A stretch of DNA of 64,000 nt from Bacteroidota bacterium (GCA_036676705.1 JAKFCJ010000207.1:15-64014); one strand, 5' to 3'; numbered from the stretch's first letter, positions 299 to 56,004 are shown. Program-made: numbers and translations. Notes: generated by a model from the sequence alone, not told the origin.

Positions 299-1810
299 CT
301 AGTTGGTAATTTTTAGCAAAAGCAGATCCTGCCCAGGGAAATAGAGAGCCGTATCGTGGTAGAACGAGTCGGGAATGGCATTATACCCGTTATATCCGGC
401 GTATTCCCGCTTGTCTGTGTAGATATAATAATAATCAACTTTCGCCATACGAACACTATCCGCATCGCCCTGTATTAGTTCCACCCAGGGATAGTTGTTT
501 GTATTTTTCACATGCCTCATCGAGACGTTAATGATCCAGCTATGGTCGAGATAAAGCGTATCCTGCCTTTGTTGCCCTTCTTTGTTCAGGTAATCCATGA
601 CCTCCTCCGATCTCGCGTCGAAAGGCCAGGAATAGCTATAACTCAGGTTCGCCAAATGTACAAAGTTGACAAGGGCCGCCAGGCTCAGGATAGTCATGCC
701 AGACAAGGCAATTTTTCCATACGGCTTATCCACCGCCAATTCGCAGGCAGCAAGCACCATCCAGACCAGGGGCAGAAGAAATACCAGCGCGGTTCGCTCG
801 ACTAGAAATGGCGTTCTGAAAAGTTGGTTTTGGAGCAGGGATGAAAGGCAGAGCATGACAAAAAGCAACGCGAACATGAAGAAAGGTGTTCCTAAACTTT
901 GTTTGGGCGCCTTTTCCTTCCTCAGGTAAATGAGGCAGCTCAGGACCAGCTGAAGGGCGATGGTCAGCAGGACGAAATGGGCAATGCGATCCGGCGTTTC
1001 GAAACCCATAATTCCGAGAAATAAGGAAGTGAATGTATCATAGACCAGGCCGGTTTGGCCCCCATACCAGAGTTCATCGCCCAGTCTTAACTTGATGATG
1101 GGCTTAATGATAATGGCGAAAAGGATAAGCGTGGGAATTGCAAGGCCTGAGGTTAAGGTTGAGGTTGGGTGCCTGCCGTAACGCAGGGGAAGGAGGGAGG
1201 GTTTTATCCAGGCCAGGTAAACGAGAACGGGAAGGAGGGCCAGATAGAAATTAAGCCAGGTGAAATTGGCGAGGACCGCGAGGGCAGCAAAGGTTAAGGT
1301 TAAGGTTGCGTGCCCGCCGAAACGCATGTGAAGGCGGGAGGTTGAGTGCCCGCGGTATTGGTCCAGGTAATAGAGACTCGCTGTGGTGAATGCGAGGGCC
1401 ATTCCGTAACCCCGGGTGAGGCTGAAAAATTCGAGCAGAAAGGGATTGAAAAAGCAGAGCACAAAAGCCATGACCTGCAGGGAAGTTGAAGACAGCCTGC
1501 GCAGGAGCCGGATACTGAACCAGGCATAAAGTAAAAATGCCAGCACGTTTGGAAGCCGGTAGAGGAAGGGTTCTGACAAGGCGAACAAGGTTTTGTTCTG
1601 CTGAATCAGCCAGACAAAGAGTGAATTCAACAGATGGGAATTCGAGCCAAGGCCCTGGTAGGTGAAGATATCGGTAAATGTGCGGTCAGCAAGGGAATCA
1701 ATCGTCCAGAGTTCGTCGTAAGTGAGCGGAATGACCGTTGCCCGCAGGATGACATAAATGAAACAAAGAAGTGCGGCAAGCTGTGGCCAATAAGGGATCC
1801 ATTTCTTCAT
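299..1810 (-). CDS. Polytopic membrane glycosyltransferase, GT39/GT83-like (ArnT/PMT-type). An N-terminal loop carries a DE motif (PLTYDELW)
   Basis: 503 aa with more than 10 predicted TM helices. The DE motif is in the first periplasmic loop. The protein contains an internal nucleotide-level duplicated segment. Confidence 0.55.
   Translation of the reverse strand: MKKWIPYWPQLAALLCFIYVILRATVIPLTYDELWTIDSLADRTFTDIFTYQGLGSNSHLLNSLFVWLIQQNKTLFALSEPFLYRLPNVLAFLLYAWFSIRLLRRLSSTSLQVMAFVLCFFNPFLLEFFSLTRGYGMALAFTTASLYYLDQYRGHSTSRLHMRFGGHATLTLTFAALAVLANFTWLNFYLALLPVLVYLAWIKPSLLPLRYGRHPTSTLTSGLAIPTLILFAIIIKPIIKLRLGDELWYGGQTGLVYDTFTSLFLGIMGFETPDRIAHFVLLTIALQLVLSCLIYLRKEKAPKQSLGTPFFMFALLFVMLCLSSLLQNQLFRTPFLVERTALVFLLPLVWMVLAACELAVDKPYGKIALSGMTILSLAALVNFVHLANLSYSYSWPFDARSEEVMDYLNKEGQQRQDTLYLDHSWIINVSMRHVKNTNNYPWVELIQGDADSVRMAKVDYYYIYTDKREYAGYNGYNAIPDSFYHDTALYFPGQDLLLLKITN
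1151..1204. repeat. Intragenic copy A of the GGTTRA-hexamer plus GC-hairpin mini-element
   Basis: ggttaaggttgaggttgggtgcctgccgtaacgcaggggaaggagggagg is about 85 percent identical to copy B at 1291..1345. Its hexamer head is shared with the intergenic elements at 47914 and 62872. Confidence 0.5.
1291..1345. repeat. Intragenic copy B of the GGTTRA-hexamer plus GC-hairpin mini-element
   Basis: ggttaaggttaaggttgcgtgcccgccgaaacgcatgtgaaggcgggagg. It has a cccgcc/ggcggg stem. Confidence 0.5.
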
Positions 1811-3727: not shown

Positions 3728-4121
3728 GATCCGCAACCTGTTTCACAACCGCAATATCGGCAGGCGCCCAATTCATGTGTGGCAGGTCATGGTGGCTTAG
3801 CCAACGAAATTCTTCATGTTCCTGGAGCCGGATCTCTCCTGCAGGCAATTCACAAACGATGGGAATGAGGCGGATGAGTTCCTTGTTATCCTGCCACCAT
3901 ACATGGGTGAGGGTCATAATGGGAATAACCTGGACAGAAAGCTCCTCTTCAATTTCCCGGATGATGGCATTTTTTTGGGTTTCTTCAAATTCCACCTTTC
4001 CTCCCGGAAACTCCCAATGCCCGGCCAAACGCTGCTTTTCCGAACGTTTAACTGCCAATACCTGACTGTTTTTCAGGATGATGGCACAAACAACGTTTAG
4101 ATATGGCTTCTCCATAATCAA
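3711..4121 (-). CDS. NUDIX hydrolase (MutT-like nucleoside triphosphate pyrophosphohydrolase)
   Basis: Nudix box GKVEFEETQKNAIIREIEEELSV (G-x5-E-x7-REuxEEL). Confidence 0.8.
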   Translation of the reverse strand: MIMEKPYLNVVCAIILKNSQVLAVKRSEKQRLAGHWEFPGGKVEFEETQKNAIIREIEEELSVQVIPIMTLTHVWWQDNKELIRLIPIVCELPAGEIRLQEHEEFRWLSHHDLPHMNWAPADIAVVKQVADLMEQF

Positions 4122-5377
4122 GAAAGTATGCGTAAACGAACATCGCCGATCCTGGCATGCTGCAAACTGAGAATGTGGAACTCAAAGCGGTCAATAGCCA
4201 GCGTTTCGCCTTTTTCAGGCAAACTTTCGTAACGGGCTATGATATACCCCCCCAGGGTTTCATACTCTCCTTCCGGGATGTTAAGTTCGTAAGTTTCATT
4301 CAAATAATCAACTTCCAAACGCGCAGAAAGCCGAAATTCTGTGTCACTGATCTTTTCTTCGGTCAGGTTTTCTATATCGTGCTCATCATCGATCTCTCCA
4401 AAGATCTCTTCAAGAATATCTTCGATGGTAACGATACCCGCCGTTCCTCCAAATTCATCAACAACCACCGCTAAACTTTTGCGGTTGGCTGTAAATTTTT
4501 TCAAAAGCTCATTGGCCGGCATGGATTCCGTTGCGATCACAATGGGGATCATACTGGCTTTGATACTTTCCGGTTTATGGAACAGATCAACCTGATGCAC
4601 GTACCCGATAATATTGTCAACCGAATCTTTATACACCAGCACCTTGGAATGGCCGCTTTCTATAAAGGTATCCCAAAGGTCTTCGATGGTATCATTAAGT
4701 TCAACGGCCACTACCTCATTCCTGGGCACCATACATTCGCGCACCTTTACCTGGTCGAAATCCAACGCGTTACGGAAAACTTCCGTATCCAATTCCGACT
4801 CTTCTTCCGTATCCATATTGATACTTTCGGAGATATAATGGTCGAGGTCGACCTTGGTAAAAAGCAGTTCCTTTTGTTCTTTGTCATTTCCGGTGAGGAG
4901 ACGAAGAAAATGTTCGGCCAGCCAGTTAACAGCCCAGACCAAAGGCCATAGCAGGTAATAAATAACCTGGAAAGGGAATATCATGGGCGGAAGCAGGGTA
5001 TCCGCATTGAGGTTAAAAATTACTTTAGGAAGAAACTCAGCCACGACCAGGATCAATAAGGTCGATAGCAGGGTTTGGATCATCAGGTTTAAAAACTCGT
5101 AGGATGCCCAGGGAGCCGTGTCAAACCAGTGAAACAAGACTCCTTCCATAAAAATACCATAAATAACAAGCGCCACATTATTGCCTACAAGCACGGTACT
5201 GATAAAACGAGAAGGTCGTTTTATGTAGTTGGAAAGGATCTTTCCCCATAAAACGCCTTGCTTATTTTTTAACTCGATACGTAGCTTGTTCGACGATAAA
5301 AAGGCGATCTCAATCCCTGAAAAAAAGGCAGAGAGAATAAGCATGAATAAGATAACAAGTCCCGAATGACTATCCAT
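4118..5377 (-). CDS. CNNM/CorC-HlyC family membrane protein with DUF21, two CBS domains and a CorC_HlyC domain. This is the Bacteroidota GldE-like protein
   Basis: 419 aa. It has an N-terminal 4-TM DUF21 domain, then CBS domains, and a C-terminal transporter-associated domain (LNIPEGEYETLGGYI). Confidence 0.8.
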   Translation of the reverse strand: MDSHSGLVILFMLILSAFFSGIEIAFLSSNKLRIELKNKQGVLWGKILSNYIKRPSRFISTVLVGNNVALVIYGIFMEGVLFHWFDTAPWASYEFLNLMIQTLLSTLLILVVAEFLPKVIFNLNADTLLPPMIFPFQVIYYLLWPLVWAVNWLAEHFLRLLTGNDKEQKELLFTKVDLDHYISESINMDTEEESELDTEVFRNALDFDQVKVRECMVPRNEVVAVELNDTIEDLWDTFIESGHSKVLVYKDSVDNIIGYVHQVDLFHKPESIKASMIPIVIATESMPANELLKKFTANRKSLAVVVDEFGGTAGIVTIEDILEEIFGEIDDEHDIENLTEEKISDTEFRLSARLEVDYLNETYELNIPEGEYETLGGYIIARYESLPEKGETLAIDRFEFHILSLQHARIGDVRLRILS

Positions 5378-9801: not shown

Positions 9802-10562
9802 CTGAGTTCCTTAGCCGCAAAAATATGCTGTACTTCATTTTCTTCTACCCGGAGCCTTCCCCATTCATCTACTCCCATTACCTTACCCTTAAACAAACGC
9901 CCATTTTTTTCAAAGGTTGTGAGCATTCCGAAAAAGAGCAGGTTTTCGTGGTATTCTTTCGAAATGCGCCATTCCTCCTGAAGGGAAGCGAGCTGCCATT
10001 CGAGTTGCGCTGTGAGTATGGGATAAACCTCATCCGGAAAAATGTCTTTGCCGCTCAGCGTCGACAAAGATGCAGCTCTTGTCAGACTTCCAAAAGATTT
10101 TTGATTGACATTCAACCCGATACCGATCACTGTGGAGGTCAGGAATTGTCCCTGGATGCTGTTTTCAACCAAAATACCGGCAATTTTTTGGCGATCGATG
10201 AGAATATCATTCGGCCATTTAATTTTTGCATCCGGCAAATAGGTTTTAATGCATTGAAGTACAGCCAGCGAAACGGCCATGTTCAATAAAAACTGTTTTT
10301 CGACCGGAATTTGCAGTTCGAGCACCAGGCTCATATAAATATTTTCTCCTTCATTGCCCGACCAGGTATTTCCCATTTGCCCCCTGCCTTTTTCCTGGAA
10401 GTCGGCGCGAATGGCAGTTCCATGACCGATCTTGCCCGATTCGAACAAGAGACGGCAAAGGTCGTTACTGGAAGAAATACGCGGATAATGGAGCGTTTGA
10501 ATACGAAAGCTTCGGATATAGGTAAGGGAGTTGGTCAAAAAATTGCCGTAATTTGCACACAA
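9786..10562 (-). CDS. birA: Biotin--[acetyl-CoA-carboxylase] ligase, group I (no DNA-binding domain)
   Basis: GRGQMGNTWSGNEG motif (GRGRxGxxWxS). Confidence 0.8.
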   Translation of the reverse strand: MCANYGNFLTNSLTYIRSFRIQTLHYPRISSSNDLCRLLFESGKIGHGTAIRADFQEKGRGQMGNTWSGNEGENIYMSLVLELQIPVEKQFLLNMAVSLAVLQCIKTYLPDAKIKWPNDILIDRQKIAGILVENSIQGQFLTSTVIGIGLNVNQKSFGSLTRAASLSTLSGKDIFPDEVYPILTAQLEWQLASLQEEWRISKEYHENLLFFGMLTTFEKNGRLFKGKVMGVDEWGRLRVEENEVQHIFAAKELRWVEL

Positions 10563-47270: not shown

Positions 47271-47316
47271 ACGCAATAATGAGGGGTTCAAAAAATTCGA
47301 ACCGAATGTACGAAGT

Positions 47317-47919
47317 TTGAGCATGAATTTGGATTTTTTTAAAAAGGATAAGGTATTTTATGATGCGATAAAACACATAACATTACCTGACTACACTCCT
47401 TCTGATAACTATTTTCATTACCTGCTGAGGGCCATCGCGTTCCAACAACTTTCCGGCAAAGCCGGAGCCACCATTCATGGCCGTTTTCTACAGCTTTTTC
47501 CCGATCAGAATCCGGAACCGGGTTTTTTACTTGAACTGGAACATGACGCATTGCGCGGCGCAGGACTATCAGGACAAAAAGCTGCCTACATGAAAAATAT
47601 AGCCGATTTCTGGCTGAAAGAAAGCCTGACAAATGCAAAGATCGATCGCCTTGGCGATGAGGATATCCTGGATTATCTTACCCAGATCAAGGGCGTAGGC
47701 AAATGGACGGTTGAGATTTTCCTTATGTTCGGCATGGGCAGGCCTGATCTGTTTCCGCTCGACGATCTGGGTTTGCAGCAGGGTGTTGCCGGTATTTATG
47801 GCTTGAATCACCTGCCCTTAAAAGAACTCAAAAAGGAAATGGTTCGTATATCGGATGGATGGAGGCCACATCGGACCAAAGCGGCGCTTTATGTTTGGAG
47901 ATGGAAAGATGGAGGTTAA
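47317..47919 (+). CDS. HhH-GPD DNA glycosylase (AlkA-like DNA-3-methyladenine glycosylase II)
   Basis: GVGKWTVEIFLMFGMGRPDLFPLDDLGL (HhH-GPD with a catalytic Asp). Confidence 0.75.
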   Translation: MSMNLDFFKKDKVFYDAIKHITLPDYTPSDNYFHYLLRAIAFQQLSGKAGATIHGRFLQLFPDQNPEPGFLLELEHDALRGAGLSGQKAAYMKNIADFWLKESLTNAKIDRLGDEDILDYLTQIKGVGKWTVEIFLMFGMGRPDLFPLDDLGLQQGVAGIYGLNHLPLKELKKEMVRISDGWRPHRTKAALYVWRWKDGG

Positions 47920-47981
47920 GGTTAAGGTTGAGGTTGAGGTTGAGGTTGAGGTTGAGTGTCGGGGCAGAAAATCTTCTGCCC
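47914..47981. repeat. (GGTTAA)2(GGTTGA)5 hexamer array plus the GGGCAGAA/TTCTGCCC hairpin. It acts as a bidirectional terminator element between convergent genes
   Basis: Seven perfect tandem hexamers. The first one contains the alkA-like stop codon. An 8-bp stem hairpin lies at 47962..47981. Confidence 0.7.
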
Positions 47982-47995
47982 TTGATGCGGGGGAG

Positions 47996-48901
47996 TTATA
48001 AATTCAGTAAAGTGTAGTACACCCCGTCGATCACCTTACCCATTCTGTATATATCAAGGGTTTCCAGGGTATCTGTTTTTCTGTGATAATTTTTATTTCG
48101 ATAGAAGGAAGTATCAGTGAGCATGAGGGCACTAAAACCGAATTTCCAATAGTTCCTATGGTCGGAATAGTCGATCCCGGGAACGAGTTTGGGAGCGGTG
48201 AATTTTTTTGTTCTTACTGATTTTGTGGAGACATAACGTCTTGAAAATTTACGCGCAAATTTTCCGGATCCGAATTTTTTTACCAGGGTAATGTAATTTC
48301 CTTTTTTGCCATAAAACCATGAAAGCAGGCCTATTGGATAGGCTTGTGAACCCGGCTCGTCCTTAAAGCAGGCGATCATCTCCAGAGAGACCATTCCATA
48401 TACAGGAATCTCAGCATCAGCAAGGGACTTTGCATGGACATAGCTGCCCATATTTTCGGTCCTGAAATAAGGGGGTTCTTCAAGGGTATATGCCACAAGA
48501 TCGATACGATGGTTCAATGCCTTTCCTTTTAACAGCCTTGCCAGCTCCAACAAACCCACAACTCCACTGGCATTATCGTCAGCTCCTTCCTGATTGCCGC
48601 AAACATCGTAATGGGCACCAACGATGATCCTTTTCATGTGTTCAGTTCCGAATGAACAGATCACATTTTTGTAGACGAATCCGTTGACCGTATATTCCTG
48701 AAAAAAAACACTGTCGGTATATAGGAGGAAAACAGCTCTTATATAATCGGCTGTTTTGTTGAGCTGAGTGATGTTTTGATAGGTTCGCGGAGTATCCGTT
48801 TTTGTAATGGCAACCAGGTGAGTCCGGATAATGGCAGTGTCGGAACCTGTGCCAAAAACCAATAAAGGAGCAAGAAGCAGAATTAAAAGAAGGGCCCTCA
48901 T
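47996..48901 (-). CDS. M28 family zinc aminopeptidase, secreted
   Basis: HYDVCGNQEGADDNASGVVGLLELAR with a signal peptide. Confidence 0.8.
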   Translation of the reverse strand: MRALLLILLLAPLLVFGTGSDTAIIRTHLVAITKTDTPRTYQNITQLNKTADYIRAVFLLYTDSVFFQEYTVNGFVYKNVICSFGTEHMKRIIVGAHYDVCGNQEGADDNASGVVGLLELARLLKGKALNHRIDLVAYTLEEPPYFRTENMGSYVHAKSLADAEIPVYGMVSLEMIACFKDEPGSQAYPIGLLSWFYGKKGNYITLVKKFGSGKFARKFSRRYVSTKSVRTKKFTAPKLVPGIDYSDHRNYWKFGFSALMLTDTSFYRNKNYHRKTDTLETLDIYRMGKVIDGVYYTLLNL

Positions 48902-48910
48902 TTTCAGGGC

Positions 48911-49336
48911 CTAATTTTCTGTATACTTCTTAAAATTATCGAGGATGGCCTGCCAACCGCTGCGTTGCATGTCGATAGAATTTTCATTTTCTGCATCGAA
49001 GGTACTGATCACTTTGGTTTGATCTCCGTCTTTGATAAAGGTGGTTTCAACCGTGCGGCCATCGCTCATGGTGTAGGCGATCTTTTCATGGAGGATCACC
49101 TGGTCGTAAACGCCTTCAAAATCGAACCCGAAGCTCCCGTCTTTGGCTTCCATACGCGAAAGGAATTTACCACCCACACGCAGGTCATTTTCTGCATGCG
49201 GGGTATGCCAATCGTCGGAGGCTGTATTCCATTTGATAATATGTTCGGGCGAGGTCCAGTATTTCCATACTTTTTCTATTGGAGCATTTACGGTGTTCCG
49301 AATAGTTACCTTGGTGAATGGGTTGGCTGAATTCAT
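48911..49336 (-). CDS. SRPBCC (AHSA1/START-like) domain protein
   Basis: 141 aa with VNAPIEKVWKYWTSPEHIIKW. Confidence 0.65.
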   Translation of the reverse strand: MNSANPFTKVTIRNTVNAPIEKVWKYWTSPEHIIKWNTASDDWHTPHAENDLRVGGKFLSRMEAKDGSFGFDFEGVYDQVILHEKIAYTMSDGRTVETTFIKDGDQTKVISTFDAENENSIDMQRSGWQAILDNFKKYTEN

Positions 49337-49515
49337 GGTTTTATTTGTTCGTTATTATTTTGAAGTACAACCAAATTAAAGCATTCTAACGAGTTTTGAA
49401 AATTTCCATCCCAAGGCAAAGTGGGAAGGATGTAATTTTTTCTGCGAATTGTATAAATATTCCCTTTGCCTCTCTTCCTAGGTTTGTAAGTATTCTGAAT
49501 CAGGGAATGAGAATA

Positions 49516-50379
49516 ATGGAAACCAGGGAAAAAGGCTACGATCTTGTCGTCAGGGCAAATAATTTTGATCTCTCCTATAATGATATTGGAGAAGGGAATA
49601 TCCCGATCATTTTTTTGCACGGCTTTCCGTTCGACAAATCCATGTGGCAGATACAGATCGATTTTCTGCGCGCAACCCAGCGCTTAATTGCCTGTGATAT
49701 TAGGGGTTTTGGAAAATCTTACGACGAAAGCTCAACTTTAAGCATGGATTTGTTTGGCGATGACCTGATCGCTTTTATGGATGCCTTATACATTGATAGC
49801 GCGATCATCTGCGGGATGTCGATGGGTGGTTTCATCGCCTTTAATGCACAGAAAAGATTTCCGGATCGTTTTGAAGCGATGATCCTGTGTGATACCCAGT
49901 GTATTGCCGACACGGAGGAAATGAAGGAAAAGCGTTTCGAGACCATGGATGAAATTGCCCTTTATGGTCCCGCGGCCTTTAACGAAAGATTTATAAAAAA
50001 GGCACTGCATAAAGAATCTTTCTTTACCAGAAGGAGCATGGTTGCAAATTTAAGAGGCCTTGTCTTTGCCAATTCTGACCGGATAATCATCCAGGGATTA
50101 TTAGCCCTGGCCGGACGTTCGGAAACCTGCTCGACCCTGCACGACATTCAGGTACCGACCCTGATCATTTGCGGAAGGGAAGATGAGGTAACTCCCCTGC
50201 AGGAATCGGAGTTTATGCATGAAAATATTAAAGGGTCCTTACTCCGGATCATTGATGATGCCGGACATGTATCGAACCTCGAAGAACCCTGGGAATTCAA
50301 CAAAATTTTACTTGAATTTTTAGGAACTTTAAAACAGGAGCACCCTGAAAATATTAGCGGGTATCAGTGGAGTTTTTAG
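49516..50379 (+). CDS. Alpha/beta hydrolase
   Basis: HGFPFDKSMW and GMSMGG (GxSxG). The start is set to METREKG. Confidence 0.75.
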   Translation: METREKGYDLVVRANNFDLSYNDIGEGNIPIIFLHGFPFDKSMWQIQIDFLRATQRLIACDIRGFGKSYDESSTLSMDLFGDDLIAFMDALYIDSAIICGMSMGGFIAFNAQKRFPDRFEAMILCDTQCIADTEEMKEKRFETMDEIALYGPAAFNERFIKKALHKESFFTRRSMVANLRGLVFANSDRIIIQGLLALAGRSETCSTLHDIQVPTLIICGREDEVTPLQESEFMHENIKGSLLRIIDDAGHVSNLEEPWEFNKILLEFLGTLKQEHPENISGYQWSF

Positions 50380-50403
50380 GTGGGACTGTGGGAAGAGCAA
50401 TCT

Positions 50404-51300
50404 CTATTTTTTCTTTTGCTCCTTAAAAATTCCTTCCAGTGTTTTTTTGTATTCGGTGTATTTGTACAGGTTGTTCTCTTTTAAAATGGAACCGAACAAA
50501 AGGTCATTCTTTTCCTTTTCTGAACCATTTTCCTTGTTGAGGCAGATCAAATGGAAAATAAGTGTTTCATAATACTTGTTCAGGTAATAGCTCTTATAGC
50601 TTTGAATCCCTTTCGATTTATCAATAACCATTTCAAAATCAGCAAAGTAAAAGTCGCTATAGTGATAATAGGGACTGCCATTGATTTTCGGAAATTTTTT
50701 AATGAGCGTATAGGCCATTTCCGTGTTCGGCGGCTTAGGGATATTCATATACCCCCAAATATTGGTTCCACACAAGCTAATCGCACGAAGGACCAGAATT
50801 CCCTTTTCTGTGTCGTCTTTCAGGTTGTAGTCTTTTAATTTTAAATCGACCCTGGCCATATTGAAAGGTTTATTTTTGTTTCCAACCGCGGTAAATAACA
50901 TACCATAGTAATTATTAACCAATTCGTAAGTCTGGATTTGGTTGGATAGTAAACTGTCGATCAATTTAGTGTTGCTGATCTGGTTCTCTTCCCGAAGATT
51001 TTCGCTGATAGCCCGGATAATAAAGAGCTGTTTTAAAATGGTATCGTTTGGACGGGCAAGATAGGTTTGGTCCAGAAGTTTATTCTTCGTTGTGATTGTC
51101 TGGGAGATAAATTCAGTTGCTGTTTCCATGCCTTTAGGAACATCATCTTCCAGTTCTTTGATCACTTCCTTGCCTGGCTCCTTGCCAAACATATAATCCT
51201 TGTAACTTTTACCAAGTTCGATCAACTTTTCATATTCGGTGCTTTGTCCGAAGCTGTGCATGGATAAACAAAGTGCAACAAGGGTAAATCTTATTTTCAT
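50404..51300 (-). CDS. Secreted K/N/Y-rich hypothetical protein in an AT-rich segment
   Basis: The signal peptide MKIRFTLVALCLSMHSFGQ starts at an internal Met. GC is markedly lower than in the flanking DNA. Confidence 0.45.
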   Translation of the reverse strand: MKIRFTLVALCLSMHSFGQSTEYEKLIELGKSYKDYMFGKEPGKEVIKELEDDVPKGMETATEFISQTITTKNKLLDQTYLARPNDTILKQLFIIRAISENLREENQISNTKLIDSLLSNQIQTYELVNNYYGMLFTAVGNKNKPFNMARVDLKLKDYNLKDDTEKGILVLRAISLCGTNIWGYMNIPKPPNTEMAYTLIKKFPKINGSPYYHYSDFYFADFEMVIDKSKGIQSYKSYYLNKYYETLIFHLICLNKENGSEKEKNDLLFGSILKENNLYKYTEYKKTLEGIFKEQKKK

Positions 51301-51610
51301 ATTCGGGAGGTGTTTTCTATTCATGAGAACCACTGATAGGGGTTCAATATAGGTGAGCGAGGGTGAAATTTCCAATTTTTGGGTTGGTTAGGTTGTTATT
51401 TTTCAAACAACCGAATGGCATATCATAATGAATGGAAGGGATCCAATAGTCTCCTATCGATTTGACCGGTAGCTTTTGCGGATATGATGAGAACTGAAAT
51501 GGTACCGGCAACTACCTCGAAGAAACGGAGCGATAAAGACGAGGGTAATTTCATGGTTGATCGTTAATACCGAAACCTTGAATTAGTCAACACAGATAAT
51601 GGGTTTTTTT

Positions 51611-52023
51611 GATCCGACTCAAACATTCTTTTTTGCGGGTAGGTGTCCCACCGACCCGCACTCAAGCGGGAGAAGGGACTGCAGGAATTTCCTTCTCATT
51701 CGAGGAAAAGAAATGTGAAAGTTTTTAGTGGTTCCGGACGAAATTGTTGATCCGACCGTCAAGTTGATCCGCAGAGTAGAAGCGATTCGGTGGGACACCG
51801 AACCGCTAAAGGTTTTTTTTGATCCGACTCAAACCGGCCTTTTGCGGGTAGGTGTCCCACCGACCCGCACTCACCAGCGGGAGAAGCGACTGTAGGAATT
51901 TCCTTCTCATTCCAGTAAAAGAAATGTGAAAGTGTTTAGTGGTTCCGGACGAAATTGTTGATCCGACCGTCAAGTTGATCCGCAGAGTAGAAGCGATTCG
52001 GTGGGACACCGAACCGCTAATGG
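51611..52023. repeat. Two tandem copies of a ~205 bp structured repeat, each bounded by ~25 bp inverted repeats (gcgggtaggtgtcccaccgacccgc ... gcgattcggtgggacaccgaaccgc)
   Basis: Units 51611..51812 and 51821..52023 are more than 90 percent identical. Each has internal hairpins such as gagaag...cttctc. Confidence 0.8.
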
Positions 52024-52102
52024 ATTTTGATTTACGAAGTGATATTTTGACATTCTCACGACATAGTTGGCTGAAAAATGACCGTGAACTAACATTCCAA
52101 TC

Positions 52103-52609
52103 GTGAACTTAGTGTTTATGATTGAAACCAAATTTTTCACGGCCGTTGTAGAAAAAAGGAAGCCAATATTTGATGTGGATGGAGCGGATTTTATTAAAGT
52201 AATTGAAGGCTCTCTTGGCTATTTTTCAGCTAAAGCGCAATTTCAACTACATGCCTATGCTATAATGCCGAACCATGTTCATTTTTTGTATAGTGAGCCG
52301 AAGGACGGTGATTTATTTAGAGTTCCATTCATAAGGTTTACTGCGCATGAAATATTGAGATTAAACATTGGCCGGCCAATGAACAAAAGAGTTGATTTTG
52401 TAGTAAATAAGTCGGATAGAGTCGAGCAAGTTTGGCGTAGAAAATCAAAGACCATTCTGGTCAAAGATGAAAGGGTATATTTTGCCGTTCTCAACTATAT
52501 CCGGAAAAACACAGAGTCTGTTTTTTGGAAAGAAAGTATTAATCGACTAGCATTGGAACCCAGAGTACCATGCGTATCACGCGATTGGAAAAGTAATTTA
52601 CCAAACTAA
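52103..52609 (+). CDS. IS200/IS605-family HuH-Y1 transposase, RAYT-like (REP-associated tyrosine transposase)
   Basis: HuH motif MPNHVHFL and a downstream Tyr in NYIRKN at about +75 aa. 168 aa. It is flanked on both sides by the structured repeats. Confidence 0.6.
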   Translation: MNLVFMIETKFFTAVVEKRKPIFDVDGADFIKVIEGSLGYFSAKAQFQLHAYAIMPNHVHFLYSEPKDGDLFRVPFIRFTAHEILRLNIGRPMNKRVDFVVNKSDRVEQVWRRKSKTILVKDERVYFAVLNYIRKNTESVFWKESINRLALEPRVPCVSRDWKSNLPN

Positions 52610-52905
52610 GATCCCTTTTTTGCGGGTAGGTGTCCCACCGACCCGCACTCACCACCGGGAGAAGCGATTGCAGGAATTTCCTTCTCATTCGAGTAAAAGA
52701 AATGTGAAAGTGTTTAGTGATTCCGTACAAAATTGTTCATCCGACCGTCAAGTTGTTCCGGAGCGTAGAAGCAATTCGGTGGGATACCGAACCGCTAATT
52801 ATTTTTTTGATCTGACTCAAACATTCTTTTTTGCGGGTAGGTGTCCCACCGACCCGCACTCACCCGGGGGAGAAGCGATTACAGGAATTCCATTCTATAT
52901 CCAAG
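52610..52905. repeat. A further 1.5 copies of the same ~200 bp structured repeat, immediately downstream of the transposase
   Basis: Unit 52610..52800 is 5'-truncated. The partial unit 52809..52905 restarts with gatctgactcaaacattc. Confidence 0.8.
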
Positions 52906-52960
52906 ATTTTGAGATTATCCTGGTCTAAGTCTGGGGCACGTCAACCGTAGATAGGGTCGC

Positions 52961-54076
52961 TTACAGCGACAATTGAAAATAAGCAATAAATCCCAGCGGT
53001 ATAACAAAACTTAAAATCCAGATCAAAATAATGAGTATCCTTCTTCCCGTGCCCAGGTCATTGATCGATTTTTTTTGGAGGATGGCTTTTACCTGTTCGA
53101 TCAACTTTTGCTCATTTTTATCGGGACGATAAACCCCCGGGGTAATAAATCGCCTGTAGTATTTGACGTGGTTGCCGATCTCTTCCCGAATAAGCCAATA
53201 TTCCTTATCACTTAATTCAGCGAAAGACTTGTCAGTATCTATAGCCTTCAACTTAAGCGCATCAGTTGTTCTTTTCACGTATTCCAGATTACCGAGTTGC
53301 ATGAAGAGAAAGAAGGGAATGATTAAGAGTACGTACGACTCGGTGCTGATGGAATAATAGCTCATTACAGCGATTGATATCCCGATGAATACCTTGTTTA
53401 TCAAGGTATTGTTTTCGAAAAACAGCACGTTAATGATACGACCTCCGTCAAGAGGCAAAAGGGGTAACAGGTTAAACAGATTCAGAAAAATAAAAATATC
53501 GGCAGTCTTCAACAGGAACTCACTGTCCAGTTGAATAGCGAAATAATAGAAGACCAGTCCGATGATTACCCCGGGGAGTGGTCCCGCGAACAGGATGATC
53601 GCACTTTGTTTTTGAGAAATGGTTTCTTTGGTTCCCGATGCGAATGCACCCACCAAAGGCACAAAAAATATCCCAAGATCCGAATACTTGTATGCCCGCA
53701 TGGCCAGGAAGTGCCCGAGTTCGTGAATGAGAAGCACCCCCGCCAGCACCAGGATATACTCAAGTTCCCATTTGAAAACGAGATAAAAGGTCAGGATAAA
53801 AAACCCCATACTCAGCAAGGAACGGTTGATCGATTGTTCCTTTATTTTTTCTTCCGGTTTAGGGGGAAAAGTGATCGGCTCCATCACAGCAGGTTCATTT
53901 TCTACGCTTGCTCTTCTTACAATAGCGGGTAATTTAGAGCGGTCGCCTGTAAAATCTTCACAGTCTTCTTCGAAGAGGGCTACATCCCCGGTCAGGTTGC
54001 AGATAATTCCTTTATCCCGGCTAAACCCCCTGTTTTCGCAGTTCTGACAAAATTCCAGCTGATATTTTCTATCCAT
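52961..54076 (-). CDS. Site-2 protease (peptidase M50) with an N-terminal cytoplasmic Cys-rich zinc-ribbon-like segment
   Basis: LLIHELGHFLAMRA (HExxH within a TM helix) and LPLLPLDGGRI (LDG motif). N-terminal CQNCENRG...C...C. Confidence 0.75.
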   Translation of the reverse strand: MDRKYQLEFCQNCENRGFSRDKGIICNLTGDVALFEEDCEDFTGDRSKLPAIVRRASVENEPAVMEPITFPPKPEEKIKEQSINRSLLSMGFFILTFYLVFKWELEYILVLAGVLLIHELGHFLAMRAYKYSDLGIFFVPLVGAFASGTKETISQKQSAIILFAGPLPGVIIGLVFYYFAIQLDSEFLLKTADIFIFLNLFNLLPLLPLDGGRIINVLFFENNTLINKVFIGISIAVMSYYSISTESYVLLIIPFFLFMQLGNLEYVKRTTDALKLKAIDTDKSFAELSDKEYWLIREEIGNHVKYYRRFITPGVYRPDKNEQKLIEQVKAILQKKSINDLGTGRRILIILIWILSFVIPLGFIAYFQLSL

Positions 54077-54148
54077 GATAAAATTTAGTGGTTCAATATA
54101 TCCCTTTGAACTTCACTTTTCCATCACTTTCTACATTTCCTTCGGACA

Positions 54149-54583
54149 TTAAGCGCCCGATTTCTTGTCCTGGACAAGCGAAACCGTCAACTCCTGAGAA
54201 CCTTCCTTCCATATACGATTACCCAATTCGCTCAATTTCTGTTTGTCGCTATCTATCACCCTGGCAAAAATATTACATGCATCCAGACCCTTTCCTTCAC
54301 CATAGTAAATACCAAAACAGTTTGCTGTTTTTGTCCGGGAAGGTTTCGACGGGCCAAAGACAACTTCACCCGGTTCTGTGAACACAGAAGCGTTTTCCTG
54401 GATGATATCAAGTGGAGGAACATTGTCGATCCATATTTCCTGCCCGGAAAGCCGCGCATGATAAAAGGTACGGGTAAAGGGCAAAATACCGGCAAAAGCT
54501 TTTGATGTTACAGGTGCTGCATCCTCATATAATTCAAACAGAATTTCCTCCTTGTCACGTGTTGTGATCTTAAATTTTCTCAT
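54149..54583 (-). CDS. Cyclophilin-like (DUF3830-type) small protein
   Basis: 144 aa. The pattern ...AAPVTSKAFAGILPF...SGQEIW...FGIYYGEG is recalled as cyclophilin-like. Tentative. Confidence 0.35.
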   Translation of the reverse strand: MRKFKITTRDKEEILFELYEDAAPVTSKAFAGILPFTRTFYHARLSGQEIWIDNVPPLDIIQENASVFTEPGEVVFGPSKPSRTKTANCFGIYYGEGKGLDACNIFARVIDSDKQKLSELGNRIWKEGSQELTVSLVQDKKSGA

Positions 54584-54681
54584 AAAACGCCAAAATACTT
54601 ATTTTCCTAATCTGTCGTGGCGGCGTGGATCGATATTAGACGAAGAAGCAAAAATTCCCCAATAACCCTTTACTTTGAAAC

Positions 54682-56004
54682 ATGGACGTGTGGATGTATT
54701 TGCTGATCGGGTTGGCTGCCGGAGGAATGGCCGGGTATTTTTTTGCCATAGCCCGAAAACTTAAGGAAGGCGAATCCCTTCAATCCATACAAATTGAAAA
54801 AGCACGGGTCGAACAAAACCTGCAGGCTGCCGAAAACAGAAGAGCGGAGTTGGAACGCCGGCTTCTGGAACTCGAATCCTTTAACCAAACACTGTTGCAT
54901 GAAAACGCAGTGTTGAAAACCGAAGGACTCGGATTGCAGCAACGCATGGCCGAACAAAAAGAGGAGCTGGAAAAACTGAACGAACGTATGTCGCTGCAAT
55001 TCAAGAATCTGGCGAACGAGATCCTCGAAGAAAAAAGCAAAAAATTCACCGACCAGAACAAGATCAATATCGGGGAACTGCTTAACCCGCTCAAAGAGAA
55101 AATCGGCGAGTTTGAAAAGAAGGTAGACGAAAGCAACAAGGAAAATGTACGCATGAACAGTTCCCTTGGTGAACAACTCAAGAACCTGAAAGAACTCAAT
55201 CAACAAATTACCAAAGAAGCGGAGAACCTCACCCGGGCGCTGAAAGGCGATACCAAAACACAGGGAAACTGGGGGGAATTTATCCTTGAAAAAATTCTCG
55301 AACGAAGCGGACTGGTCAAAGGACAAGAATTTATCGTTCAGGAAAGTACCACTATGGAAGGCGGCCGGTTGCGACCCGATGTGGTCATCAAACTGCCCGA
55401 TAACAAGAATATTGTCGTTGACTCCAAGGTGTCACTGACAGCCTATGAACAGGCCATGAATGCAGGGGATGATGTTGAACGGGCCATGCATATGAAAATG
55501 CACGTTCAATCCATCAAAAATCATATCCGGCAACTCTCTTCCAAAGATTATCAGAAACTTTACGGTGTAGAAGGATTGGATTTTGTGCTTCTTTTCATTC
55601 CCATCGAACCGGCTTTCAGCTCAGCCCTGCAGGCAGAATCCGACCTCTTCAACCAGGCTTATGAAAAGCAGATCGTGTTGGTAAGTCCGAGTACGTTGCT
55701 GGCTACCCTGCGTACCGTGGCAAATATCTGGCGTTACGAATACCAGAACCGAAACGTGCTCGAAATAGCGCGTCAGGCCGGGGATATGTACGATAAGTTC
55801 GTCAATTTTTCGGAAGACCTGATCAAGTTGGGTGTTCAGATGGATACCTCAAAAAAGACCTATTCCGACGCCATGAACAAGCTCGTTGATGGGTCCGGAA
55901 ACCTGATCCGCCGCGCAGAAAAACTCAAGGAGTTGGGGGCTAAGACGTCGAAGCAGATGAATGATAAATTGTTGGACAGGAGTGAGAGTGGAAGTGAAAA
56001 GTGA
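54682..56004 (+). CDS. rmuC: DNA recombination protein RmuC
   Basis: N-terminal TM helix, long coiled coil, and the C-terminal RmuC domain LVSPSTLLATLRTVANIWRYEYQNRN. Confidence 0.85.
   Translation: MDVWMYLLIGLAAGGMAGYFFAIARKLKEGESLQSIQIEKARVEQNLQAAENRRAELERRLLELESFNQTLLHENAVLKTEGLGLQQRMAEQKEELEKLNERMSLQFKNLANEILEEKSKKFTDQNKINIGELLNPLKEKIGEFEKKVDESNKENVRMNSSLGEQLKNLKELNQQITKEAENLTRALKGDTKTQGNWGEFILEKILERSGLVKGQEFIVQESTTMEGGRLRPDVVIKLPDNKNIVVDSKVSLTAYEQAMNAGDDVERAMHMKMHVQSIKNHIRQLSSKDYQKLYGVEGLDFVLLFIPIEPAFSSALQAESDLFNQAYEKQIVLVSPSTLLATLRTVANIWRYEYQNRNVLEIARQAGDMYDKFVNFSEDLIKLGVQMDTSKKTYSDAMNKLVDGSGNLIRRAEKLKELGAKTSKQMNDKLLDRSESGSEK

Follow-up and report, generated by a model that had tools for sequence, protein, structure and literature searches.

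The stretch of DNA examined here, referred to as the window, is a 64,000-nucleotide (nt) sequence from a Bacteroidota bacterium (GCA_036676705.1 JAKFCJ010000207.1:15-64014), and the locus of interest (51611-52905) is a 1.3-kb mosaic of coding and non-coding sequence flanked by two minus-strand genes, one for a protein of 323 amino acids (aa) and the other for an M50-type peptidase. Within the mosaic is one gene for a putative transposase of the Y1 HUH type, set among repeats that carry inverted hairpins. In our view the locus is probably a REPtron, that is, a single gene for a REP-associated tyrosine transposase (RAYT) lying among its cognate repetitive extragenic palindromes (REPs), which are arranged as REP doublets forming hairpins (REPINs), and it would represent a rare, compact clade of the Bacteroidota.

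The putative transposase and its hairpins

The open reading frame (ORF) is intact and is the sole long ORF inside the array, running on the plus strand to 52609 from either a GTG at 52103 or an ATG at 52118. The GTG, and with it the length of 168 aa given in the initial annotation, is possible, but the likely start is the ATG (163 aa) because three close homologues begin M(I)ETKF. Both of the catalytic motifs read from the sequence at the outset are present, namely MPNHVHFL with H53-V-H55 and NYIRKN with Y127, which has N131 at the +4 position (163-aa numbering). In an alignment with 22 relatives M50, H53, H55 and W106 are invariant, and P51, N52, R101, Y127 and I128 are nearly so.

The best family for the protein is NCBIfam REP_Tyr_transpos (NF047646; 43.6 bits, E 2.6e-11), and this is also the best-supported family for 23 of the 23 aligned sequences; NCBIfam transpos_IS200 (NF033573) reaches 13.6 bits against a cut-off of 55. 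When the alignment profile was compared with the PDB the best match was 4ER8 (E 2.9e-7), Escherichia coli TnpA_REP bound to a REP hairpin, the match covering the HUH strand and the YI..NP (YIYINP) helix. An AlphaFold2 model with a mean confidence (pLDDT) of 90.4 gave the same entry at rank 1 in Foldseek (root-mean-square deviation 3.2 A), with IS200/IS605 TnpA structures at ranks 2-30, all at a probability of 1.00. Asparagine at Tyr +4 is the state of TnpA_REP, glutamine being found in IS200 (PMC6006769). Sequence and model together support the assignment of the protein to the Y1 HUH enzymes of RAYT/TnpA_REP type and not to IS200 proper, which upholds the RAYT-like reading in the original description. 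An exact-match search with the window protein found no record.

The ratios of non-synonymous to synonymous substitution, 0.16 between the window and its 96%-identical homologue (L004; loci outside the window are given L numbers) and 0.09 between a more distant pair of homologues (L001 and L003), indicate that the gene is under purifying selection and is maintained. The clade to which it belongs is small and isolated; a phmmer search of 1.84 billion cluster representatives returned 3 matches at E <= 1e-30, 8 at E <= 1e-10 and 120 at E <= 1e-3.

The repeats are arranged head-to-tail, in a single orientation and in register, with about two units of ~211 nt 5' of the ORF and 1.5 units 3' of it. 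Tandem Repeats Finder (period 211, 2.1 copies, 92% matches, 51597-52028) and a repeat search (three 189-nt copies at 51629, 51840 and 52618, which are 85-92% identical, plus a partial fourth one at 52802-~52900) agree on this arrangement, which is also the one first described. The two 25-mers previously regarded as inverted repeats bounding each unit lie exactly where they had been placed: GCGGGTAGGTGTCCCACCGACCCGC is found at the four REP-L positions of Table 1 and GCGATTCGGTGGGACACCGAACCGC at the first two REP-R positions, with a variant of 2 substitutions at the third. They are not terminal inverted repeats (TIRs), however. Each is itself an imperfect palindrome with an 11-bp stem containing one mismatch and a 3-nt loop, GGA or TCC, and thus a REP hairpin, and REP-R and REP-L are mutually inverted. 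A TIR-bounded miniature inverted-repeat transposable element (MITE) of a DDE transposon was considered and rejected, as the 25-mers are internal (arms extend 45-70 nt beyond them) and self-folding, and no direct duplication flanks the array ends. Their common core, GGTG-KSM-CACC, occurs 6 times in the window, always at this locus, where 0.11 occurrences would be expected by chance.

The structured character of the repeats was borne out by folding and by pairing across copies. A single long hairpin is predicted for REP-R1, the 37-nt linker B and REP-L2 (51764-51886, -35.5 kcal/mol, z -8.2), and the two solo doublets of a related genome (L005 and L006, described below) fold at z -4.1 and -5.8. 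Across 19 distinct REP copies, drawn from five loci and one distant family, 86.6% of cells are paired, as against 29-47% in slid registers, and pair 5-22 is G-C in 11 copies and U-A in 7. Pairing of the REPIN arms past the REPs was also considered and, by inspection, is not conserved across genomes. Paired inverted REPs of this kind are a REPIN or BIME (bacterial interspersed mosaic element) type doublet, the usual partner of a RAYT. The alternative suggestion that the units encode a structured RNA found no support, as no Rfam family was recovered at 51000-53500 (E <= 10) other than noise such as mir-2071 (24.7 bits against a gathering score of 100).

A conserved GT[AG]G tag at the hairpin foot was not found in the window or the related loci. 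REP-R is preceded on its 5' side by GTAGAA in L006 and the window and by TTAGAA, CTAGAA or GCAGAA elsewhere, REP-L (reverse strand) by GAGT or GGGT, and the 3-nt loops are GGA, TCC or TCT. The copies at REP-L positions in L003 (3914-3938 and 5050-5074 compared with 4107-4131 and 4860-4884) have the same near-perfect palindromic stem with a loop of either GGA or TCC/TCT, and loop sequence is therefore unreliable as a marker of orientation. The octamer TTGWTCCG was also seen 7 times on the plus strand of the array (51609-51982, and 52753), at three per full unit with two in the left arm and one in the linker, and 14 times in the whole window, where 6 are expected. TTG(A/T)TCCG lies ~10 nt 5' of TAGAA-REP-R in L001, L003, L005 and L006, and may act as a motif for targeting, cleavage or protein binding.

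The phase of the unit differs from that first proposed, in which REP-L and REP-R enclosed ~120 nt. In the solo copies (L005 and L006), which are intergenic and have no RAYT gene, REP-R comes first and is followed by a ~37-nt linker and then REP-L. The one in L005 can be aligned to window 51717-51883 with 80% identity, its two REP cores being unchanged, and the L003 array starts with an arm and REP-R and finishes with REP-L and an arm. On these grounds we favour a natural unit of REP-R/linker/REP-L with arms of ~45-70 nt, half a unit out of phase with the earlier one. The window would then read, head to tail, as a truncated REPIN (linker A and REP-L1), REPIN B, a REP-R2/RAYT/REP-L3 unit and REPIN C, and since the array starts at the expected end of a REP-R hairpin, the left arm and REP-R of the first REPIN are missing. 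The RAYT gene is bracketed by REP-R2 and REP-L3 just as REPs bracket a linker. The sequence that follows REP-R2 resembles the start of a linker (TAATGGATTTTGAT...) and that preceding REP-L3 the end of one (...CTTTTTT), so that the gene stands in for the middle of the linker. From its appearance the REPIN would be a MITE-like derivative of the gene-bearing unit, formed by internal deletion.

Related loci and the wider RayT family

The association of gene and hairpins holds in four loci. Three homologues, P0001 (96% identity), P0002 (73%) and P0003 (71%), each have the same flanking hairpins; arms and spacers vary between loci in both length and sequence, with about 120, 87 and 64 nt from REP-L to the next REP-R. 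REP-R and REP-L bracket the gene in the window, L003 and L004; L001 lacks both gene-proximal REPs but has the next ones. Copies without a RAYT gene exist as well. A strict 25-mer pattern, run on one genome per species in collections that do not include the source genome, matched only in the metagenome-assembled genome (MAG) UBA8524, where two further contigs (L005 and L006) each carry one solo REP-R/linker/REP-L doublet. The initial view of a transposase embedded in its partner repeats, and of a repeat with copies beyond this locus, is thus upheld, as the repeats recur beside homologous genes and also stand alone in a related genome. A search of the protein database with the pseudo-translated REPIN, directed at spurious ORF calls in other copies, gave no candidates.

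Copy number and position are both polymorphic. Each homologue is on a single contig per assembly and the locus differs between genomes. L004, in which the RAYT gene is 95% identical at the nucleotide level and the M50 neighbour is held in common, has one degenerate REP-L 3' of the gene, compared with 1.5 units in the window. L001 and L003 have in common a DEAD helicase-YbjN-149 aa-202 aa-cmk block, and the RAYT array is upstream of the helicase in L001, whereas in L003 it separates the 202-aa gene from cmk; the corresponding position in L001 is an empty intergenic region of 65 nt. The window array occupies a third site, so the whole block is found at three different sites in three genomes. Some boundaries fall exactly at the REP-R foot, namely the left edge of the window array (...CAGA/TAATGGG, the slash marking the boundary) and two in L001, one at the right edge of its array and one 5' of the gene (...TTAG/), and these would be the expected trace of site-specific nicking at hairpin feet. 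In L001 the REP-R directly 5' (9900-9930) and the REP-L directly 3' (10475-10510) of the gene are precisely missing while the arm sequences are kept, which could be the result of excision exact to the hairpin or of the gene having been immobilised.

At the same locus (L001 9700-9790 and 10560-10650) both of the REP-Rs beside the UBA8524 RAYT hold a ~63-nt insert exactly in the loop (GCGATTCGGTGG/CCCGCC...GGCGGGCGCA/GGACACCGAATCGC). The inserted sequence forms a hairpin of its own, with ends (GCGCCCGCCGAAGC...) that are found again just 5' of the solo REPIN in L006 (5720-5790); the insert looks like a second small palindromic element family nesting in or next to REPs.

The window is syntenic with UBA8524 contig DQHT01000140 (L005) at 81-88% nucleotide identity over 47291-50393 and 54652-55619. 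Between these flanks lie 4.3 kb in the window (50393-54652) and 2.6 kb in L005 (4382-7032) with unrelated genes, and the only sequence common to the two is the REPIN and 41 nt to its left (window 51552-51592). To judge from this comparison the intervening stretch is a variable island with the REPIN inside. The direct neighbours of the L005 solo REPIN have no protein homology to the neighbour genes of the window, and the idea of an orthologous REPIN site therefore holds only for the ~41 nt and for synteny on a larger scale, and does not extend to the genes next to it. The 41-nt segment could belong to the outer part of the element, or it could be a conserved site of insertion.

A profile search found 4164 proteins at E <= 1e-10, largely Bacteroidota RayT or transposase sequences (Mucilaginibacter, Pontibacter, Rufibacter, Chitinophagaceae, Cytophagales) that are 23-34% identical to the window protein. 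The RayT gene of Mucilaginibacter jinjuensis has GTTGTTGGTG-ACAA-CACCAACAAC / CATTGTTGGTG-TTGT-CACCAACAAT doublets, 42 nt apart, on both sides, and the hairpins at that of Rufibacter glacialis resemble them. On three metagenomic contigs, found by chance, a distant RayT gene is flanked by arrays of GGTCGGTG-(A)GGA-CACCGACC. An apical GGTG-N3-4-CACC is common to the hairpins at RayT genes in L008, L038, L127 and L129, and the hairpin sequences compared indicate that this apical part is kept across the family while the lower stem varies.

The 17-mer KTCGGTGGGACACCKAM proved insufficiently specific in a metagenome scan, giving at least 120 loci, and among the matches listed none has the ~200-nt unit, other hairpin families being found instead. 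In these loci (L007-L126) the core GTCGGTG-GGA-CACCGAC recurs in several unrelated repeat contexts, among them ctcgggctgcgcccgagg-core-cccacaac (L027, L068, L082, L085, L093, L103), gtc-core-aacgg (L021, L024, L033, L120) and one that looks coding (L013, L026, L029, L040, L043, L048, L109); among the contexts listed, only the ttccg-core-cagggag family has a link to RayT.

Quentin et al. (2018) described RAYT subclass 2.6, equivalent to group 5 of Bertels, as mostly from Bacteroidetes and as having the motifs NH[LIV]H, WQ and YIH[QN]NP and a C-terminal Ser motif (PMC6006769). Its hairpins are "atypical secondary structures" without GT[AG]G and with copies elsewhere in the genome (PMC6006769), with 3-nt loops and one structure being 122 nt long (PMC6006769 Table S1), while the 16-mers flanking group 5 genes have ~31 occurrences genome-wide (Bertels et al. 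2017; PMC5581495). Given these non-GTAG structures, the initial judgement that the present locus is an atypical RAYT/MITE association was overstated. The window protein has the phylum, the NH[LIV]H motif, the conserved W and the enlarged distance between HUH and Tyr (74 aa) in common with this subclass, for example the RayTs of M. jinjuensis and R. glacialis, and the loci are alike in non-GTAG hairpins with 3-4-nt loops, an apical GGTG...CACC in the flanking doublets and, in the case of the related UBA8524, hairpin copies elsewhere in the genome. It differs in having YIRKN in place of YIH[QN]NP, WR in place of WQ and no C-terminal ...Y.(W/Y)SSA.FY tail, in its low identity to those proteins and in the tiny size of its clade (3 clusters at E <= 1e-30). 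The gene moreover lies inside a REPIN, not between two complete doublets, and the REPIN has long conserved arms. Because of WR, YIRKN and the missing tail, the window protein is best placed as a divergent offshoot of the Bacteroidota RayT family and not as a strict member of subclass 2.6.

Coordinates and neighbouring sequence

Table 1. Features in and around the array (window coordinates)
Feature	Position	Strand	Remarks
323-aa gene	50404-51375	-	left neighbour of array
41-nt segment	51552-51592		88% match to sequence directly left of solo REPIN in UBA8524 (L005 5608-5648)
Linker A (TAATGGG-T7-GATCCGACTCAAAC...TTTTTT)	51597-51634	+	array start
REP-L1 hairpin, GCGGGTAGGTG-TCC-CACCGACCCGC	51635-51659	+	-10.2 kcal/mol, z -4.9
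Right arm of REPIN A and left arm of REPIN B	51660-51781	+	junction near 51700-51715; two TTGATCCG motifs; GTAGAA directly 5' of REP-R1
REP-R1 hairpin, GCGATTCGGTG-GGA-CACCGAACCGC	51782-51806	+	-8.6 kcal/mol
Linker B (REP-R1 to REP-L2)	51807-51843	+	part of REPIN core
REP-L2 hairpin	51844-51868	+	
Right arm of REPIN B and left arm of RAYT-bearing unit	51869-51992	+	junction near 51905-51920
REP-R2 hairpin	51993-52017	+	directly 5' of RAYT gene
RAYT 5' region	52018-52117	+	linker-like start, then TTGACA...AAAATGACCGTGA, also in L003 and L004
Predicted RAYT-type Y1 HUH transposase gene, 163 aa	52118-52609	+	H53/H55 at 52274-52282; W106; Y127 at 52496-52498; N131
REP-L3 hairpin	52622-52646	+	12 nt past RAYT stop codon
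Right arm of RAYT-bearing unit and left arm of REPIN C	52647-52770	+	
REP-R3 hairpin, variant GCAATTCGGTGGGATACCGAACCGC	52771-52795	+	2 substitutions
Linker C	52796-52832	+	94% identity to linker A over 70-nt repeat (linker and REP-L start)
REP-L4 hairpin	52833-52857	+	
Right arm of REPIN C	52858-52905	+	similarity to other units fades at ~52897-52905 (array end)
M50-type peptidase gene	52961-54076	-	array at 3' end of this gene

The TTGACA...AAAATGACCGTGA stretch ahead of the gene is presumed to be the RAYT promoter or leader, and was not called by the sigma-70 scan; scans for sigma-70 promoters and intrinsic terminators gave nothing above chance at the REPs or 5' of the RAYT gene. The AT-rich pocket in which the locus was thought to lie is weak, as the GC content is 0.37-0.47 compared with 0.42-0.49 around it and is low only in the ORF (0.376). 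Two small ORFs of 55 and 43 aa are predicted on the minus strand at 51344-51554, between the 323-aa gene and the array, the 43-aa one having the look of a signal peptide and a start that adjoins the 41-nt segment common with L005; they may be genuine or the remains of a disrupted gene. Short G/T-rich tandem runs (GGTTAAGGTTGAGGTTG..., GGGTTTCGGGTTTCGGGTTCTGG, GGTTATGGGTTATGGGTTCTGG), unrelated to the REPs, are present between genes in the window (1134-1167 and 47897-47948) and in L006 (5780-5815 and 6140-6170).

Interpretation of the locus

Systems of the kind to which this locus is most readily compared are on record for E. coli, for Pseudomonas and for other Bacteroidota, and the mechanism is not new. 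TnpA_REP of E. coli has the same Y1 HUH fold, is the best structural and profile match and has Asn at Tyr +4, and the E. coli REPtron likewise consists of a single gene with inverted REP hairpins that contain a stem mismatch or bulge and are found as tandem pairs. The window protein is however only ~15% identical to it, the hairpin sequences are unrelated, and instead of a strict GTAG tag there is a conserved 5' flank, (T)AGAA, which by chance reads GTAGAA in the window. The REPs of E. coli are also ~35 nt long with short spacers, whereas the unit here is ~200 nt with conserved arms, and only a handful of copies are documented here, against the high copy number in E. coli. The REPIN-RAYT system of Pseudomonas fluorescens is similar in that two inverted REPs and a spacer form a long hairpin, the RAYT gene is flanked by REPINs and the REPINs occur in clusters; Bertels and Rainey (2011) reportedly identified this doublet with its spacer as the replicating unit. 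It differs in its RAYT (group 3, subclass 2.5), its phylum and its hundreds of copies compared with the handful documented here. The TnpA proteins of IS200/IS605 elements (IS608, ISDra2) have the same fold and presumably the same single-strand, hairpin-guided chemistry, but the locus here has no Y...Q motif, no asymmetric left and right ends (LE/RE) and no tnpB, and seems not to be multi-copy.

By analogy with E. coli TnpA_REP and with the TnpA of IS608 and ISDra2, a mechanism can be proposed which we consider likely. The RAYT would bind a REP hairpin on single-stranded DNA, in the lagging-strand template, where its HUH pair would hold a metal ion and Y127 would nick the foot of the hairpin to form a 5'-phosphotyrosine link. 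Single strands of REPIN length could then be excised and re-joined, and repeated local reinsertion beside existing copies, or recombination between copies, may have produced the head-to-tail array round the gene. The strand, the nick sites and transposition itself we infer from this analogy.

Several observations weigh against a REPtron. A high-copy REP population is a hallmark of classical REP-RAYT systems, but here the scan for the GGTG-KSM-CACC core found no REP copy in the other ~62 kb of the window and the strict pattern gave just two extra loci in UBA8524. The protein scores below the curated cut-offs even though RAYT is its best-matching family, reaching 19.6 bits (E 1e-3) for Pfam Y1_Tnp (PF01797), under the gathering score of 23, and remaining under the cut-off of 80 bits for NF047646. 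Neither the YIH[QN]NP signature of the Bacteroidota family, replaced by YIRKN, nor the C-terminal SS(A) motif is present; the SSA tail is absent in the five nearest clusters too. Recombination or slippage without transposition could also be the source of head-to-tail arrays.

It could be argued that REP-R/RAYT/REP-L is an autonomous, selfish, low-copy IS200-like insertion sequence (IS), neither domesticated nor vertically inherited, and that the ~200-nt repeats are a few MITE-like deletion derivatives of it. The position of the gene where a linker would be, between two REPs, would agree with this, as would the seemingly low REP copy number and the finding of the block at a different site in each of three genomes, one of these sites being cleanly empty in L001 and filled in L003. 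However each homologue was seen on one contig per assembly, the residue at Tyr +4 is that of TnpA_REP where IS200 has Y...Q (PMC6006769), the IS200 profile is not matched, and a plasmid search (blastn, distant setting) and a search of viral contigs gave no match. The ends, moreover, are mutually inverted REPs and not the asymmetric LE/RE hairpins of IS200/IS605, and we regard an autonomous IS as improbable. Another conceivable origin is local tandem duplication through slippage or unequal recombination between palindromes, with the RAYT now irrelevant to the structure of the array and the hairpins kept for a host role such as ending or stabilising the M50 transcript. This would fit the uniform orientation and register of the head-to-tail units and their place at the 3' end of the M50 gene, and REPs have known effects on mRNA stability and termination (PMC3733652). 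Against this, the same doublets are also present in other genomes and at unlinked loci, no REP was called by the terminator scan, and the RAYT is under purifying selection; the boundaries at the REP-R foot (one in the window, two in L001) and the precise hairpin losses in L001 also fit site-specific nicking better than slippage. Local duplication with a host role thus seems very unlikely.

With the locus taken as a REPtron, there is some room for the suggestion, which we put forward tentatively and think rather unlikely, that the compact clade (157-163 aa, no C-terminal tail, YIRKN) is at an early or intermediate point on the way from an autonomous IS200-like element to a domesticated REPIN-RAYT system. 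It is prompted by the gene lying inside the doublet, by a REPIN that resembles an internal-deletion derivative with long conserved arms and a thrice-repeated TTGATCCG, and by the low copy number of a block that is still relocating between genomes. If true, the clade would offer a natural snapshot of the origin of REPINs from a Y1 transposon.

REP/REPIN-RAYT systems are best studied in Gammaproteobacteria, those of the Bacteroidota having so far been described at survey level only, and the locus provides a well-delimited case in which the enzyme is intact, the hairpins are defined, and solo derivatives as well as empty and filled sites are available. The divergence of the enzyme means that it is missed by standard profiles, and recognising it as a probable RAYT explains, for these MAGs, both a repeat array and a "hypothetical protein" left unannotated. 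The apical GGTG...CACC, which is common to Bacteroidota RayT genes of ~25-30% identity, offers a testable recognition determinant for the family.

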